A DNA stretch of 31,162 nucleotides from a virus (lineage: Duplodnaviria; Heunggongvirae; Uroviricota; Caudoviricetes), in the IMG/VR virus record IMGVR_UViG_2582580984_000003; one strand, given 5' to 3'. A program made the translations under genes and the position numbers. Positions 20,832 to 30,085 of this stretch are shown here, one piece after another. Under the pieces are notes generated by a model, which did not search any database, was not told where the DNA came from, and worked only from the letters and a program-made list of their open reading frames with translations. Position 1 is the stretch's first letter. Each line of letters begins with the position of its first letter.

Positions 20832-21038
20832 CTTCATTTTCACTTTCTTAAATCTAACGACAGATGGCTAACATTTAAGTATTGTGAAATATTATCAAAT
20901 GTAATCATCATTGATTTACAAAAGATACATTTTGCCCCGAAAGGATTTCTGTCAGAAACATCAAAAGATGATGTTCTATACTGAGAACCATGGCAACACG
21001 GGCATCTAAAGTGAATATGGTTTGTAATATTTTCTACC

Positions 21039-21251
21039 TCAAAGTGCCACTACATGAACAGCTGCAGGGCCTTTAGGTCCGTTCTCAATACCAAATTCGA
21101 CTTCCTGATTCTCAGTTAACGTTTTGAAATCGTTGCTCTGAATAGCTGAGAAATGCACAAACACATCTTTGCTACCATCTTTCGGCGTGATGAAACCAAA
21201 ACCTTTTTCAGGGTTAAACCATTTCACTAAACCAGTCATTTTGTTAGACAT
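21039..21251 (-). CDS. cspI: Cold-shock protein (CspA family, CspI-like)
   Basis: 70 aa from ATG at 21251; RNP1 KGFGFI and RNP2 VFVHF motifs; ~360 bp AT-rich upstream leader typical of csp genes. Confidence 0.9.
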
Positions 21252-21614
21252 CATTATTACCTTTTGAAGAAGTTAGCCCTTGGGCAGAATGGTCCGAAAA
21301 AAAATATCAGAGAGAAAAACCAACAAGGAAATCTCAAGAGGTACAAATAATAAAATTATAACAATGACTGCTTCAGATAATTTTGTAACAAACCAGAACA
21401 CCATTAACGCATGATTAACCAACCATAGCAAGGATTACTTTTGTAAAGAAAAACACACGAATGAAACAATAGCTTTATTTATTAATAAAACGTGTCATTC
21501 TGTCTAATGACCTTTTATCTTACCCTTAAGATTTCAAGGATTTTGACTCATGGAAGAGTCCTTTTTATTTAAATTTCACATTCAGCGCTAAAAATAATCC
21601 GATTTAATATTAAT

Positions 21615-23421: not shown

Positions 23422-23817
23422 CTAACCTCGCATGTCAAAGCCAGATTTCTGAAAATCTCTGTAGACTTCCGGATTGTTGAAGGCCGGAAATTTGGCTTTA
23501 TGAGCTGCGGACTTTATCGCTTCGCAATAGGCTTTATCACCGTTACTGGTAGATATTTTTAACGCCGTGCCATCCTGAGAGAATTCCATATGCAACCTGC
23601 ATTTTTTCCCTTTCCAGTTATGCGGCTCATCAAGTTTGGCATTAATTGCAGCTCTGATTCCCCGCGCTTGCGCCCCCCATTCATCCTGATCATCCCAGCG
23701 TCCTGAACTGCAACTACCTGTAGCAGTAGTTTTGTGGCAATCTGAAGGGTGTAAAGGTGTGCATCCCGCAACAAAACCGACCCAAAAAGTCAACATAACG
23801 ATTTTCTTTAATCCCAC
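23422..23817 (-). CDS. Lipoprotein with TolA C-terminal (domain III)-like domain
   Basis: 131 aa; GTG start at 23817 with GAGGAG 6 nt upstream; signal peptide with lipobox VAGC; C-terminal region (GKKCRLHMEFSQDGTALKI..GD..YCEAI..A..KA.FP....PEVYRDF) resembles the TolA C-terminal domain and its paralog at 23968. Confidence 0.75.
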   Translation of the reverse strand: MGLKKIVMLTFWVGFVAGCTPLHPSDCHKTTATGSCSSGRWDDQDEWGAQARGIRAAINAKLDEPHNWKGKKCRLHMEFSQDGTALKISTSNGDKAYCEAIKSAAHKAKFPAFNNPEVYRDFQKSGFDMRG

Positions 23818-23967
23818 TTCTTGCTCCTCAATCCATTAAAATCTCAGCAATAGTAGTTGTTACGTCCGCCACTGGCTCAGAGCTGACTATCCGCTAAATT
23901 TAGCTCAGTGCCGTAGTTGTGTCAGAACAAACCTAAGCCGAAACCGTTTATTACAAAACAATAAATA

Positions 23968-24396
23968 TCAGGGTTTAAAATCCAGCACCCCATTTTGAAA
24001 TACTTTATATACTTCCGGCGAAGGGGGGGCAGGTATATCAACATTCTTTATCGCATTCATCGCTTCACGACATAAATCGAGGTCTCCACTTTCTCTTTTA
24101 ACCTCCAGTAGAAGGCCATTCGGGGCCATATGCATTCTCAGTGTACACTCTTTTCCTGAATACTTACTCGCATCCCCGAACTGTTTTTCGATGGCGCTCT
24201 TGATTTGATGGGCATACAGACGGATATCCTCACTAACATCAGAAGTACGTTCAGATGAACTCACATACTGTGTCTCTATTGCTTTATCGGAGTAATATGA
24301 TGTACGGTCATGATAATTTGTCGATACAGCATCAGTGCACCCGATAATAATCCCACTAATAATCAACGTAAGAATTGATGCGCTACGAAAACCCAT
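23968..24396 (-). CDS. Lipoprotein with TolA C-terminal (domain III)-like domain
   Basis: 142 aa; ATG with GAGGAAAA RBS; lipobox IIGC. C-terminal 80 aa (YAHQIKSAIEKQFGDASKYSGKECTLRMHMAPNGLLLEVKRESGDLDLCREAMNAIKNVDIPAPPSPEVYKVFQNGVLDFKP) closely matches the E. coli TolA C-terminus as recalled (YAGQIKSAIESKFYDASSYAGKTCTLRIKLAPDGMLLDIKPEGGDPALCQAALAAAKLAKIPKPPSQAVYEVFKNAPLDFKP). Confidence 0.8.
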   Translation of the reverse strand: MGFRSASILTLIISGIIIGCTDAVSTNYHDRTSYYSDKAIETQYVSSSERTSDVSEDIRLYAHQIKSAIEKQFGDASKYSGKECTLRMHMAPNGLLLEVKRESGDLDLCREAMNAIKNVDIPAPPSPEVYKVFQNGVLDFKP

Positions 24397-24425
24397 TTTT
24401 CCTCACATATGTCATATAGTAAAGG

Positions 24426-24455
24426 ATTATATATACCGTTGTTTTGGACGCTCAA
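24426..24455 (-). promoter_or_regulatory. Candidate sigma70 promoter for the TolA-like lipoprotein gene
   Basis: Minus-strand TTGAGC-N16/18-TATATAAT about 30 nt upstream of the RBS. Confidence 0.35.
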
Positions 24456-24929
24456 ACAGCGAATCAGATCAAATAAAACGCACATTTGTTAACATTTACA
24501 CAAAGTCTGCGTGGGATATTCTGAAAGAATATCCATAATGTGGAGAGAATCTATTGAAGTGCATGGTGCCGGGTGCCTCCCGGTGAATTCAGTACCAGCA
24601 CCTGAATCCGCGATTATCCCATATACCTACTCGCTGATTGCCCCTCCGCACAGGGGGATTCACCATGCCAGTTTCTTTTAACAAACTCCCCGCAAACCAG
24701 AGAACAGTCAACCGCCTGAATTGTGAAGTATTTAAAAATTTCTCCCGCTAACTGATACCCGGCTAACAGTCTGGCGTTTTCTTTTTCAGCAACGGGAAAG
24801 CAACAACCACCACACCCGCCACCAGCACACCGTCAGCCAGCACTGACATTATCCGGCTGCTGCAATGCCATTCACAAAAACAGTAAGCAATCACTTTTTA
24901 CCGTAACAGGTGATAATCCAGATATGTAT

Positions 24930-25283
24930 CTACCCCAGATGAGTAATCCGAAGTTCATCCATACCACAGGTCCTGGCTATTCTGTTGTACTCCTGAACAA
25001 GAGCAAATAATTCTGAATTAGCAACCATGAACTCATCGCAAACCCTCTGTATAGCATCACTATTCAGAATAATAACGTCTCTTCCCGAAAGACGATCAGG
25101 AGCACAGAACAAAACTGTCAAACGGCTGAAGGCCTTTGCTCGTGCTGCATTGACTATATCAATACGCTGCCTAAGGATGAAACACCCCGACGCCTCATCA
25201 ATATTCACTCTACCCACACCATATGAATGATAAATATTTAATGCTGAAAAAACCATTAGACCGTATAACAAACACTCAATCAA
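24930..25283 (-). CDS. Hypothetical protein (uncertain coding status)
   Basis: 117-codon ORF beginning with TTG; first ATG at 25256 has no clear RBS; lies immediately downstream of the tRNA genes in the Q-S cargo slot. Confidence 0.3.
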   Translation of the reverse strand: MIECLLYGLMVFSALNIYHSYGVGRVNIDEASGCFILRQRIDIVNAARAKAFSRLTVLFCAPDRLSGRDVIILNSDAIQRVCDEFMVANSELFALVQEYNRIARTCGMDELRITHLG

Positions 25284-25393
25284 TACTTAACAGAACTTTT
25301 ATTTTTGACAAACATATTATGTTTTCAACAATATCCTGAGCCAGGTATATTCCAGTATAAGGCTCTGCCGGAAGGAATCTGGAAGAATGAATA

Positions 25394-25470
25394 TGGCGCG
25401 CTGTACTGGATTCGAACCAGTGACCGATTGCTTAGAAGGCAATTGCTCTGTCCGGCTGAGCTAACAACGC
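25394..25470 (-). tRNA. tRNA-Arg (anticodon UCU)
   Basis: 77-nt cloverleaf read from the minus strand: acceptor GCGTTGT/ACAGCGC, D-stem GCTC/GAGC, anticodon stem ATTGC/GCAAT with loop CTTCTAA, T-arm ACTGG-TTCGAAT-CCAGT, 3' CCA. Confidence 0.9.
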
Positions 25471-25570
25471 TGAATACCGATAATGGACCGCCATCGGGGA
25501 CCCGCCCCCGCACCAACAACCCTGTTATCGTGTCGTCTGCTCTTCCTGATAAGCTAATGGCGGTTTGTGA

Positions 25571-25646
25571 TGGTGGCCCTTGCTGGATTTGAACCAGCGA
25601 CCTGGCGATTATGAGTCGCTCGCTCTCACCACTGAGCTAAAGGGCC
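25571..25646 (-). tRNA. tRNA with anticodon CAU (ileX/ileZ-like tRNA-Ile2; Met not excluded)
   Basis: 76-nt cloverleaf: acceptor GGCCCTT/AAGGGCC, anticodon loop CTCATAA, T-arm GCTGG-TTCAAAT-CCAGC, 3' CCA; very similar to E. coli ileX as recalled. Confidence 0.85.
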
Positions 25647-25685
25647 GGGAGCAGAATAATAACGGTCCGTAATTAATTCCGCAAT

Positions 25686-25707
25686 AAAAAACCCGCTCGG
25701 CGGCGGG
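25686..25707 (-). terminator. tR'-like intrinsic terminator downstream of the late promoter
   Basis: Minus-strand CCCGC-CGCCGA-GCGGG hairpin followed by TTTTTT, ~45-60 nt downstream of the pR'-like promoter. Confidence 0.6.
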
Positions 25708-25756
25708 TTGTAGAAACTCTTCTAACGTCAGGCATAAAAAGCCCATCATTATGACG

Positions 25757-25784
25757 AATTTACCACAGATTCCGGAAAAATCAA
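25757..25784 (-). promoter_or_regulatory. pR'-like late promoter (Q-modified transcription start region)
   Basis: Minus-strand TTGATT-N16-TAAATT immediately downstream of the Q stop codon, followed by a short leader and the tR'-like terminator. Confidence 0.5.
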
Positions 25785-25789
25785 CCTTG

Positions 25790-26611
25790 TTACCTAGTTA
25801 CCTTTTTTAACTGCCGCTCAGCCCATGCTTCTTCAATATCAAACCGGGTCACCAGCGCATCATAGAATTTCTTAACTGTTTTTTCCCATGACGCGCGTGT
25901 TATCTGGTTTGTCACCTCGCATATAGCATTAAATGCCTCCGTTGATGGTAGTCTTTCATAGCCACGACCACCACAACGCTGGCAGTCTCTGACAACAGGC
26001 ATACCACGTTTTACCGACTCTTCACGATGAATGGCGACACCACGCCCACGGCAATCCTTACAGGCGGTGGAAACCTCACCCTTTCCGCCACACTCCGGAC
26101 AGGCAACTTTTACCACCTCCCTGACTTTTTTCCATTCTTCCCAGTAAGACGGATACACACCTTTCGTACACTTTGCCCATACCGGCGGCTTACCATCCGG
26201 ATACTGGACCTTGTTTGTAAAAACTATGCTTTCAATAAATTTTTCCCCATAGCAACAAGGGCACTGCTTTTTACTCGCTGCGCTGCGGGCATAATCCTCA
26301 AAAGCGTACGAAGCCATAATGCGCATCACTACCGGTTTTATTTCTGCCGGAAGTTTTCTCAACGCCGCCACACGATCGCACCGACTGAGTGCATAATCTG
26401 CCAGTAATTCTGTTGCCCGCGCCCTGTCATTCATACTGATGCCCATTTTCCCCAGGAACGCAGAAAAACCCATCTCAGCCCGATTCTGTGTCATGCCCTG
26501 CGCGGCCATCACATCAGTGATACTCAGCGCATCTTTTGACGTTGAGGCCGATGCATCGGTCAGGCCAGGGGATTTTGGGGAGTAGTATTTCGGTAAATCT
26601 TCCAGTTTCAT
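25790..26611 (-). CDS. Q: Late-gene antiterminator Q (QuuQ-like)
   Basis: 273 aa; four Cys pairs (CPCC, CPEC, CKDC, CQRC) forming zinc-finger-like clusters; located directly upstream of the pR'/tR' pair. Confidence 0.8.
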   Translation of the reverse strand: MKLEDLPKYYSPKSPGLTDASASTSKDALSITDVMAAQGMTQNRAEMGFSAFLGKMGISMNDRARATELLADYALSRCDRVAALRKLPAEIKPVVMRIMASYAFEDYARSAASKKQCPCCYGEKFIESIVFTNKVQYPDGKPPVWAKCTKGVYPSYWEEWKKVREVVKVACPECGGKGEVSTACKDCRGRGVAIHREESVKRGMPVVRDCQRCGGRGYERLPSTEAFNAICEVTNQITRASWEKTVKKFYDALVTRFDIEEAWAERQLKKVTR

Positions 26612-28858: not shown

Positions 28859-29014
28859 TTACTCCTCAGGTTCGTAAGCTGTGAAGACAGCGACCTCCGT
28901 CTGCCCGGTTCGGATTCGTACCTCGCAGAGGTCTTTCCTCGTTACCAGTGCCGTCACTATGACGGTTAAACAGATGACGATCAGGGCGATTAACATCGCC
29001 TTTTGCTGCTTCAT
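28859..29014 (-). CDS. hokD: Hok/Gef-family membrane toxin (HokD/RelF-like)
   Basis: 51 aa from ATG at 29014 with AAGGAG RBS: MKQQKAMLIALIVICLTVIVTALVTRKDLCEVRIRTGQTEVAVFTAYEPEE. The ORF-track in-frame 5' extension is not used. A GGCGAGGGA..TCCCTCGCC hairpin sits just 3' of the stop. Confidence 0.9.
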   Translation of the reverse strand: MKQQKAMLIALIVICLTVIVTALVTRKDLCEVRIRTGQTEVAVFTAYEPEE

Positions 29015-30085
29015 AGCCTGCTTCTCCTTGCCTTTCGGCACGTAAGAGGCTAACCTACATGTGTCTAGCATGAAATTGGCCTCAGATTAATGTTAAGCGT
29101 CTTGCAGGACGCGTAATGTTAACTGGGGCTTTTCTCTATCTGCCGTTGGTGTTCATGCCCGAGGCAGATAGCCTCAAGCACCCGCAGCCATTCTACTTAA
29201 CTACCGTTACCTCGCCAATGTGAAATCAGTCAGAAAGGCGATCCATAAGAACAATAGCAAGACAATAAATCGCCATTACAGCCGTAATAGCCAGCGCACA
29301 TTTGAGAACCAGCACCACAACCTCCTGTATTGGACGTACACCAGTCCTGATGAATATGAGGCTGTCTCGTCAGTGATTCAATACAACTATTGGGTATAGT
29401 TTCTCTGATTTTTTCTGTGGAAATGGGGCTCAACCACTAGTCATTTAATACGCAAAGTCCGACACAAGCTAACCTTCTAGTCCGCTTTGAGCGATGAGCG
29501 GACATCGACTTTAAAAAACACTAGCGTAAACAGGAAGGCAGTTATGATCCAGAATGAATACTCACTACCTCTTTGACTAAAATGATGATAAGTGCTCATT
29601 TGATGATAATTAACATGTTTTTTAATAATTAAAGCTAACATAATAATTTAACGAATATTCTTTGCTTTCTGAATAATAAACCTAGAGCAAACTAAATGAC
29701 ATCACCAGGACTTAACACCATAGGGTTGGTTTCGAATATTCTTGGCGTGATATTAATTTTTCTTTTGATTACCACAATCCTCTCATAATGAGGGAGTGTC
29801 ACTGGCATTGGAAGATAATACGCAATTGAATGATGGAACTACTGTCAAATAAAAGAACTTAAAAACAAAAAAAGAAGTATATTTACAATATCTTTCGTAT
29901 ACTTAGCGTTAGCATTAATGTTCACGGATTCGTATTGCAATTCTTATCAATTCTACCTGACTTGCAAATTTAATTGACTCGTAACATCTGCAACCCCACA
30001 TTTAACAAAAAGCAGATAGAATAATTGAAGGATATAGTCTAGCTAAGTTAAATGTGGGTGCGTTTTATTTTACATCAATATATTT

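Follow-up and report, generated by a model that had tools for sequence, protein, structure and literature searches.

IMG/VR virus record IMGVR_UViG_2582580984_000003 (Caudoviricetes), a stretch of 31,162 nucleotides that is referred to here as the window, carries on its minus strand a late gene control region followed closely by tRNA genes. In the order of transcription, the locus consists of the Q antiterminator gene, a pR' late promoter, a tR' intrinsic terminator, tRNA-Ile2(CAU), a 100-nt gap (positions 25471 to 25570), and tRNA-Arg(UCU), without stx. This order had been proposed by a first-pass annotation made from the sequence alone, and it was borne out by a PF03589 match in Q, homology to lambda and P22, a terminator scan, and ARAGORN. 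We read the locus, with a probability of roughly three in four, as the late-control junction of an ordinary lambdoid (Qin/mEp460-like) Escherichia coli prophage with a small mobile tRNA cassette behind it, the element in the gap being the remnant of the middle gene of that cassette. The features are listed in Table 1.

Table 1. Features of the locus, with positions in the window unless another record or locus is named
Feature	Coordinates	Strand	Basis and remarks
Q antiterminator gene	25790..26611	-	273 amino acids, lambda Q family; PF03589, E=1.4e-54
pR' late promoter	25757..25784	-	-35 TTGATT (25784-25779), 16 nt, extended -10 TGgTAAATT (25762-25757)
-10-like AATGAT, predicted sigma-dependent pause element	25745..25750	-	Predicted +1 to +6; GGG follows
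tR' intrinsic terminator	25684..25709	-	AACCCGC-CGCCGA-GCGGGTT, then T run; terminator scan
Predicted ~65-nt pR' short transcript	25686..25750	-	From promoter and terminator positions; putative lysogen RNA, analogue of lambda 6S, StxS, and IsrK
Mobile tRNA cassette common to Stx phages	25379..25686	-	~308 bp; megablast against Stx2 phages and phiP27
Cassette's own promoter (predicted)	25656..25684	-	TTGCGG (25684-25679), 17 nt, TATTAT (25661-25656), ends 9 nt before tRNA
tRNA-Ile2(CAU), ileZ type	25571..25646	-	ARAGORN; Rfam RF00005, 72.5 bits; PGAP tRNA-Ile
Degenerate tRNA-like gene, argN slot	25484..25563	-	Covariance-model match; argN alignment; cloverleaf-like minimum-energy fold
tRNA-Arg(UCU), argO type, reads AGA/AGG	25394..25470	-	ARAGORN; Rfam RF00005, 68 bits; PGAP tRNA-Arg
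First cargo open reading frame (ORF)	24930..25256	-	108 amino acids; phrog_2873 (function unknown) end to end, E=2e-69; unannotated in RefSeq
Middle-slot anticodon variants in other loci	L127 (TL-2011c, JQ011318) 24180-24256; L031; L021; L340		

The Q protein of the window is 29% identical to the Q proteins of lambda and P22 across 100% of their length (tblastn) and 100% identical to Q of phage mEp460_ev081, and its RefSeq label is 'antitermination protein'. The pR' promoter starts directly past the Q stop codon. Its hexamers and spacing agree with those of lambda, P22, and phi80, in which pR' is annotated, and the same layout is found in mEp237 and mEp460: the window reads TTGATT-16 nt-TGgTAAATT-CGTCAT-AATGATGGG, and lambda and P22 read TTGACT-17 nt-TAAATT-TGACTC-AACGATGG. 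The spacer between the -35 and -10 hexamers (TTTCCGGAATCTGTG) is kept as TTTCCCGAATCTGTG in mEp237, whose Q is 54% identical, and its position is that of the Q-binding element of lambda. Further downstream, AATGAT aligns with AACGAT-GGG in lambda, P22, mEp237, and mEp460. The P22 record annotates P late and places the 5' nucleotide of the late RNA at the first A of AACGAT, with a qut-like site overlying it; from alignment to this lambda/P22-type motif, we infer that transcription would start at A25750.

The tR' terminator, located 40 to 65 nt past the predicted start, resembles the annotated tR' of P22, and both leader and terminator are homologous in mEp460. Its hairpin (25709 to 25690; 7-bp stem with 5 G-C pairs, 6-nt loop) is present in the minimum-energy fold, the stability of the whole leader not being significant when compared with shuffled sequence (z=-1.32). 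Promoter and terminator together predict a short transcript of the kind for which StxS provides the concept (PMC7547250). Rfam isrK matched over its full length at exactly the bounds of this transcript, a hint at most given its subthreshold score (18.1 bits, E=0.02 to 0.13; threshold, 50). Trp_leader and other Rfam matches to the leader were dismissed as noise driven by the terminator. Thus, pR' and tR' are confirmed by homology, from which promoter activity and Q dependence are predicted. As judged from its lambda and P22 homologues, the module would have RNA polymerase initiate constitutively close to 25750, at pR', and pause at the -10-like AATGAT; without Q the enzyme would stop at tR' and release the ~65-nt RNA, and with Q bound it would continue past tR' into the tRNAs, the cargo, the lysis genes, and the structural genes.

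ARAGORN identified exactly two tRNA genes in the window, and tRNA covariance-model scanning supported both of the cloverleaves that had been claimed. The CAU tRNA is the homologue of the gene annotated as ileZ in AP012540 and AJ298298. Because it is identical to the host chromosomal tRNA-Ile(CAU) at 70 of 76 positions, with none of the six differences in the anticodon loop, the Ile2 reading is correct and the 'Met' label given by ARAGORN is the usual artefact. The CAU anticodon of Ile2 reads AUA once it is modified with lysidine.

When the 701-bp region around the locus was used as a megablast query, the matches to Stx2 phages and phiP27 were limited to query positions 215 to 522, which correspond to the cassette in Table 1. 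Stx-phage similarity begins precisely at a promoter belonging to the cassette itself, the hexamers of which are kept in Stx2 phage and phiP27 and the -35 element of which overlaps the T run of tR'. Among 119 IMG/VR loci with the CAU tRNA, TTGNNN is found at -38 to -33 in 104 and TATTAT at -15 to -10 likewise in 104, and similarity to the window falls off sharply upstream of -40. In O157 Sakai, a primary start from which the tRNAs are transcribed has been reported between tR' and stx2 (PMC7547250). Furthermore, the modules that flank the cassette are of at least two unrelated kinds upstream and three unrelated kinds downstream. In the window, homology to the Stx2 phage stops 15 nt past argO, and we found no terminator between argO and the first cargo ORF or anywhere else between the tRNA promoter and that ORF.

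Taken together, these observations suggest that the cassette would have inserted behind the late-control junction, bringing its own sigma-70 promoter with it. As a consequence of that promoter, which is conserved, tRNA-Ile2(CAU) and tRNA-Arg(UCU) are probably not confined to the late transcript but made in lysogens too and boosted after induction. A self-promoted mobile tRNA block of ~300 bp, separate from pR' and tR', matters for models of Stx or cargo expression in lysogens. The best match to the promoter consensus in the region (TTGACA-16-AACAAT, 10/12; 25305 to 25332, plus strand) is a different one, directed antisense towards argO, and may be due to chance in AT-rich DNA.

The first-pass annotation had further suggested that the tRNAs might boost translation of AT-rich cargo genes and had pointed to codon usage as a check. 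We compared the 13 pR'-proximal genes between the tRNAs and terminase with 35 core genes of the carrier host (10,042 codons) and found that AUA, AGA, and AGG were strongly enriched, 5- to 11-fold: ATA occurred at 18.2 versus 3.6 per 1,000 codons (odds ratio, 5.1; p=3e-8), AGA at 14.2 versus 1.3 (odds ratio, 11; p=3e-10), and AGG at 5.5 versus 0.5 (odds ratio, 11; p=1e-4). In the first cargo ORF alone, 9 of 108 codons are ATA, AGA, or AGG. CGA and CGG, the codons of the lost argN, were not enriched in the 13 genes. At the level of codon counts, this pattern supports rare-codon supply and fits the retention of ileZ and argO and the loss of argN; the two tRNAs would add AUA and AGA/AGG decoding where these codons are over-represented, in the AT-rich accessory, lysis, and early genes.

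Prophage nucleases such as P2 OLD, PARIS, and HepS were recently demonstrated to attack the anticodon arms of tRNAs, and lambdoid tRNAs can counter them. It is possible, if on balance unlikely, that the cassette serves mainly in counter-defense, supplying cleavage-resistant copies of tRNAs cut by host or rival-prophage nucleases rather than compensating for codon usage. We know of no nuclease that targets tRNA-Ile2(CAU) or tRNA-Arg(UCU) specifically here, the few differences between ileZ and the host tRNA all lie outside the anticodon loop, and the codon enrichment is real. On the other hand, there are precedents in the tRNA-Thr(UGU) of phage 21, which protects against P2 OLD (PMC12445682), and the tRNA-Lys of T5, which neutralizes PARIS (PMC11464382); the corresponding slots of sister cassettes are occupied by Thr(UGU), Lys(UUU), and Gly(UCC); and the anticodon of the middle slot varies among phages (UCG, UGG, UCU, CCG, and UUU). 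As accounts of lambdoid tRNA cassettes, codon supply and counter-defense are equally current (PMC12445682, PMC11464382); they are not mutually exclusive and may coexist.

The middle slot is the variable part of the cassette. Of 122 loci, 60 have Arg(UCG) in this position, ~31 have no callable gene there, and ~15 have one resembling Lys(UUU), with single cases of UGG (TL-2011c), UCU, and CCG. Fusions of argN and argO are present, and many 'intact' argN alleles have mismatches in the acceptor or T arm. Three IMG/VR loci (L022, L049, and L095) are hybrids joined in the anticodon loop, with the anticodon UCU, which implies recombination between the paralogous argN and argO genes. Elsewhere the anticodon has shifted between phages by point mutation, from UCG to UGG in TL-2011c, where the gene is called tRNA-Pro, and to UCU and CCG in others. 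The argO gene of TL-2011c has G for A at position 37.

In the window, this slot is occupied by an element that cannot decode. The gap has the acceptor-like ends and lacks the canonical T loop, as had been noted. Aligned with argN, the tRNA-Arg(UCG) gene of Stx2a_WGPS8, it retains the 5' acceptor strand, D arm, T stem, 3' acceptor strand, and CCA, whereas a different and longer sequence stands in place of the anticodon arm, and GCGGGT (6 nt; GCGGGU in the RNA) is found where argN and phiP27 have the T loop TTCGAGT. A covariance model built from 18 intact middle-slot (argN-family) tRNAs and searched against 44 kb matched the element over the full length of the model at 52.5 bits (E=8e-12). An intact tRNA-Arg(UCG) gene as the second gene of the cassette is not present in the window.

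Both the fold and the covariance alignment retain a four-armed cloverleaf with a 7-bp acceptor stem, a 5-bp T stem, and a 3' CCA. They differ in the anticodon arm. In the covariance-model register this is a stem ACGAC/GUUGU closed by an 11-nt loop, ACGAUAACAGG, and in the minimum-energy fold it is a 7-bp hairpin, CGAUAAC/GUUGUUG, with a 3-nt loop. In either register, the element has no 7-nt anticodon loop with U33 and a purine at position 37, and it has no T loop with T54-psi55-C56 and A58. These are two independent lesions, the 11-nt loop and the lost T loop, each incompatible with decoding, and the element, having neither a usable anticodon loop nor a T-psi-C loop, therefore cannot decode. 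Two other accounts of the gap were rejected: chance resemblance to a tRNA, by the covariance-model score (E~1e-11), and a cryptic canonical tRNA, for which ARAGORN made no call and Rfam, searched with a cutoff as loose as E<=10, gave no tRNA match. In phiP27, where the remodelled arm is the same and the TTCGAGT loop is intact, the allele scores 26.4 bits against the Rfam tRNA model, just under the threshold.

The element is widespread. A 44-nt core of the remodelled arm was found in 1,253 of 5,426 complete E. coli genomes (23%), at 1,392 places, and it was never annotated; the only deposited phages that contain it are phiP27, mEp460_ev081, and four vB_EcoS phages. We found no donor of the remodelled arm beyond the cassette in the window or the phages searched, and among the papers searched there was none naming ileZ, argN, or argO and none describing the element at 25484 to 25563. 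Among 29 loci with the window-type allele, the element has acquired a stem-breaking G>C change, an acceptor G>A change, an inserted G, and two deletions, the stem-breaking changes being uncompensated. In the same 29 loci, argO shows a compensatory C-G to G-C change in its T stem, which indicates that argO is under structural constraint. The window copy is most likely a dead gene, or pseudogene, that has been carried along between two tRNAs under selection and may still be a substrate of RNase P. Two deletion variants of the window type were seen in IMG/VR: in L103 the octamer GGTTGTTG of the relic is joined to the same octamer near 24795 to 24803, removing argO and the first cargo genes, and in L042 17 nt are missing between the 3' end of the relic and argO.

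The origin of the relic was less simple than the decayed third tRNA suggested by the first-pass annotation. The first-pass observation as a whole was confirmed, and its interpretation was largely right; the relic is real, tRNA-derived, and unannotated. Its derived characters, however, are those of a group of genes that we named type-R in this analysis, defined by an 8-nt D loop (..GGAAGAGC), which is shorter by one base, and an anticodon stem NNRAC/GUUGU on an argN-like chassis. In alignment, the window allele carries the type-R D loop and the NNRAC/GUUGU stem and lacks the 5- to 8-nt loop and intact T arm. Judged by these sequence characters, and by the remodelled arm shared with phiP27, the window element is not a product of recent decay of argN(UCG). 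It looks like an aberrant type-R product with a truncated loop and a broken T loop, and it appears to contain two tandem versions of the 5' stem strand, GACGAC (Salmonella-like) followed by CGATAAC (YeP1-like). A search of IMG/VR for an intact ancestor, in which the same stem would be closed by a 7-nt loop, gave only chance matches within coding sequence.

Members of type-R came from a second IMG/VR scan, from a remnant in Salmonella diarizonae, and from the Yersinia phages YeP1 and YeP3. They sit in or beside post-Q tRNA cassettes, usually directly after tRNA(CAU), and clearly decayed members are also present. A contig scan with GTCCYCGRTGGCGGTCCA was unspecific, returning mostly Actinobacteria or unrelated sequences, and its one useful match was the Salmonella relic, L200 (Salmonella enterica subsp. 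diarizonae NZ_VXJV01000009.1, 2680 to 2835). L200 is a remnant island with integrase and transposase fragments in which the tRNA(CAU) is heavily decayed and the adjoining type-R gene keeps perfect acceptor, D, and T arms and a 6-nt loop, which would be odd if both were undergoing neutral decay. A related cassette order, Ile2(CAU), Arg(UCU) or type-R, Thr(UGU), and Gly(UCC), is seen in IMG/VR loci L262 to L380; their Thr(UGU) is of the type that, in other work, conferred protection from P2 OLD.

The 26 distinct type-R alleles align such that 98.4% of stem positions form standard pairs. The five positions of the anticodon stem are paired in 26 of 26 alleles even though A-U/G-U and C-G/U-G/U-A changes occur among them, 17 alleles have C-G and 9 have U-A as acceptor pair 7-66, and most alleles have the canonical T loop TTCGAGG, G18G19, and CCA; these alleles were gathered by patterns demanding a conserved chassis, which inflates its apparent conservation, and the counts ignore kinship among loci. 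The anticodon loop behaves in the opposite manner. It is 5, 6, 7, 8, or 11 nt long and different in almost every allele (CCAGGT, CCAGAT, TAAAT, TTAAT, TTTAT, ATGAT, CATAGT, CTTGGT, CACGGT, CTCAGT, CACGCT, CATTAA, and CGGGAT, for example). In one subfamily with 21 distinct contexts, the 5- to 6-nt loop has 11 haplotypes and all six of its columns vary (median for 7-column windows over the tRNA cluster, 3 haplotypes), while the chassis has 8 variable columns of 66, compared with 15 of 77 in the neighbouring tRNA(CAU). The flanking DNA of these loci is unrelated (~50% identity). This pattern is not produced by uniform neutral decay and points to either a constrained cloverleaf with a diversifying loop or a mutational hot spot in the loop.

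One explanation, which we put forward tentatively and regard as improbable, is that the middle element descends from an undescribed prophage family of non-decoding tRNA-like RNAs with a constant chassis, in which the hypervariable 5- to 8-nt loop would be the specificity determinant in an arms race, for example as a decoy or inhibitor of the anticodon-arm nucleases of rival prophages, and the window/phiP27 allele would be an inactivated or repurposed derivative. That the middle element is itself a functional non-decoding RNA and not a pseudogene, acting as a decoy or inhibitor of a nuclease or other enzyme or as a structured RNA with loop specificity, seems more doubtful still. The paired stems and the C-G/U-A switch at 7-66, the contrast between loop and chassis, the unrelated flanking DNA, and the canonical T loop, G18G19, and CCA of most alleles all speak for function among the relatives, to the extent that the search patterns did not create the conservation. 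The window allele, with its missing T loop, its aberrant 11-nt loop, and the uncompensated stem mutations and deletions among its copies, speaks against it, as do the decayed members elsewhere and a minimum-energy fold of the element no more stable than that of shuffled sequence (z=-1.25). We consider it very improbable that the element is kept as processing punctuation, an acceptor-stem/CCA mini-helix that would let RNase P and 3' exonucleases separate and mature the flanking tRNAs, since its retained acceptor stem, T stem, and CCA and its short spacers to the flanking tRNAs (only 7 and 13 nt) are outweighed by the retention of argO in L042 without the 3' end of the element, by the fusion of the argN 5' half to the argO 3' half in L022, L049, and L095, and by the maturation of adjacent tRNAs by E. 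coli RNase P without such helpers.

Our reading of the locus as a late-control junction with an inserted cassette and a dead middle gene has several observations weighing against it. A generic promoter scan called neither pR' nor the promoter of the tRNA cassette; pR' was missed because it matches only 8 of 12 consensus positions. The codon match is only loose, because the early genes, which precede pR' activation, are equally enriched in the three codons and because the structural genes are enriched in CGG and AGG, not ATA, although argN is dead. The 44-nt core is 100% identical in 1,221 of the 1,253 genomes, whereas a control of 44 nt of non-coding sequence just downstream differs from the window at 1 or 2 positions in 770 of 1,074 genomes, a contrast that one ancestral polymorphism could explain and for which the differences expected in IMG/VR are too few to allow a test. 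Finally, because the type-R relatives in prophages appear constrained rather than decaying, 'pseudogene' is not proven even for the window copy.

The window prophage is an ordinary E. coli lambdoid prophage of the Qin/mEp460 type with the gene order hokD, rem, ydfU, rusA, Q, tRNAs, cargo, lysis genes, cspI cluster, terminase, head and tail genes, and lom, and all features of the locus lie on its minus strand. Over 31 kb it aligns collinearly with E. coli FDAARGOS_497, from which it differs by 338 mismatches, and the 701-bp region around the locus is 100% identical to phage mEp460_ev081 and to hundreds of E. coli chromosomes, where PGAP (RefSeq) labels the identical sequence 'antitermination protein', tRNA-Ile, and tRNA-Arg. 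A hok/sok type I toxin-antitoxin pair lies at 29009 to 29183 and 28859 to 29014 (both minus strand; sok RNA, 115 bits, with hokD adjoining), and a cspA-type thermoregulator 5' untranslated region (20993 to 21409, minus strand; 110 bits) lies upstream of the cold-shock gene cspI, which is followed by ymcF, ynfN, and gnsB.

The first cargo ORF occupies the position of stxA in Stx phages. It had no Pfam, NCBIfam, or PADLOC match, only close relatives. Downstream of it follow a DUF3927 gene, an STnc100-like RNA, two TolA-C-like genes, and the lysis genes, with no stxAB. The cargo block at 23422 to 24894 (minus strand) encodes the 43-amino-acid DUF3927 protein, assigned by PHROG to 'TciB-like inhibition of cell division or resistance to colicin', together with a pair of paralogues of 142 and 124 amino acids that have a TolA C-terminal domain; the DUF3927 and TolA-C-like proteins may be decoys against Tol-dependent colicins or filamentous phages. 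A strong Rfam match to the small RNA STnc100 (24507 to 24697, minus strand; 114 bits against a gathering score of 47) separates the DUF3927 gene from the TolA-like genes, in a region where RefSeq has a pseudogene fragment on the opposite strand.

On its own, the locus is ordinary and adds little, because the arrangement is known and the prophage is very common: lambdoid prophages have long been recognized to carry tRNA genes in the interval from Q to the late genes, whether or not stx is present, and in identical sequences these genes already have annotations. What it does add is an unannotated tRNA-derived element that phiP27 and almost one in four complete E. coli genomes carry, and, as a modest new lead, the family to which this relic belongs. 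The interest for follow-up thus lies outside the window, in the frozen cloverleaf and hypervariable loop of type-R, which offer a testable lead for a new RNA-based counter-defense or decoy.

Compared with the tRNA-Lys of T5 that opposes PARIS and the tRNA-Thr of phage 21 that opposes P2 OLD, the locus has in common that the tRNA genes are phage borne, in some cases by lambdoid phages, and that changes in the anticodon arm matter in conflict. The T5 and phage 21 tRNAs still decode, whereas the middle element cannot, and no nuclease is linked to ileZ or argO. The closest likenesses to the middle element outside the E. coli cassettes are genes after Q in YeP1 and YeP3 that their depositors labelled 'tRNA-OTHER' or 'tRNA-Pseudo' (tRNA-Pseudo-TTG in YeP1). 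These and the IMG/VR type-R genes share with it the 8-nt D loop, the NNRAC/GUUGU stem, and the acceptor CCGCCAY/RUGGCGG, and the CGATAAC of YeP1 is identical to the 5' strand of the window hairpin. They differ in having a 5- to 8-nt loop and an intact T loop; in the window copy the T loop is broken and the other loop has 11 nt (or 3 nt).

The late module resembles that of lambda and P22 in its Q family, in an identical -10 element (TAAATT), and in an AAYGATGGG pause motif at the same distance, and it resembles P22 also in having a terminator close downstream of the start. It differs in the size of Q (273 versus 207 amino acids) and its low identity, and in the putative Q-binding-element spacer, which matches mEp237 instead. 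The predicted leader of ~65 nt compares with one of 194 nt in lambda. In Stx phages the leader is 258 nt (PMC7547250).

The first-pass annotation had called the locus Stx-phage-like, which holds only for the ~308-bp cassette. In Stx2 phages (Stx2a_WGPS8, AP012540; 933W/Sakai Sp5 type), as in the window, the cassette follows Q and a terminator and precedes the cargo, and the ileZ-argN-argO block is 88% identical over ~306 bp, with homologous ileZ and argO. The window differs from these phages in having other cargo in place of stx, a non-decoding relic in the argN(UCG) slot, no counterpart of the terminator after argO (L001, 3303 to 3322), and a Q/pR'/tR' module from another family, pR' and tR' being unrelated to the 933W type. 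Stx2e phages have been reported with only tRNA-Met (=Ile2) and tRNA-Arg (PMC7366253). In one of them, phiP27 (AJ298298), the cassette has its closest published relative, 92% identical. This phage has stx2e downstream and, unlike the window copy, a canonical T loop and a score on the Rfam tRNA model (26.4 bits), but it carries the same two annotated tRNAs, ileZ and argO, separated by a gap of ~100 nt with an identical remodelled anticodon-arm sequence.

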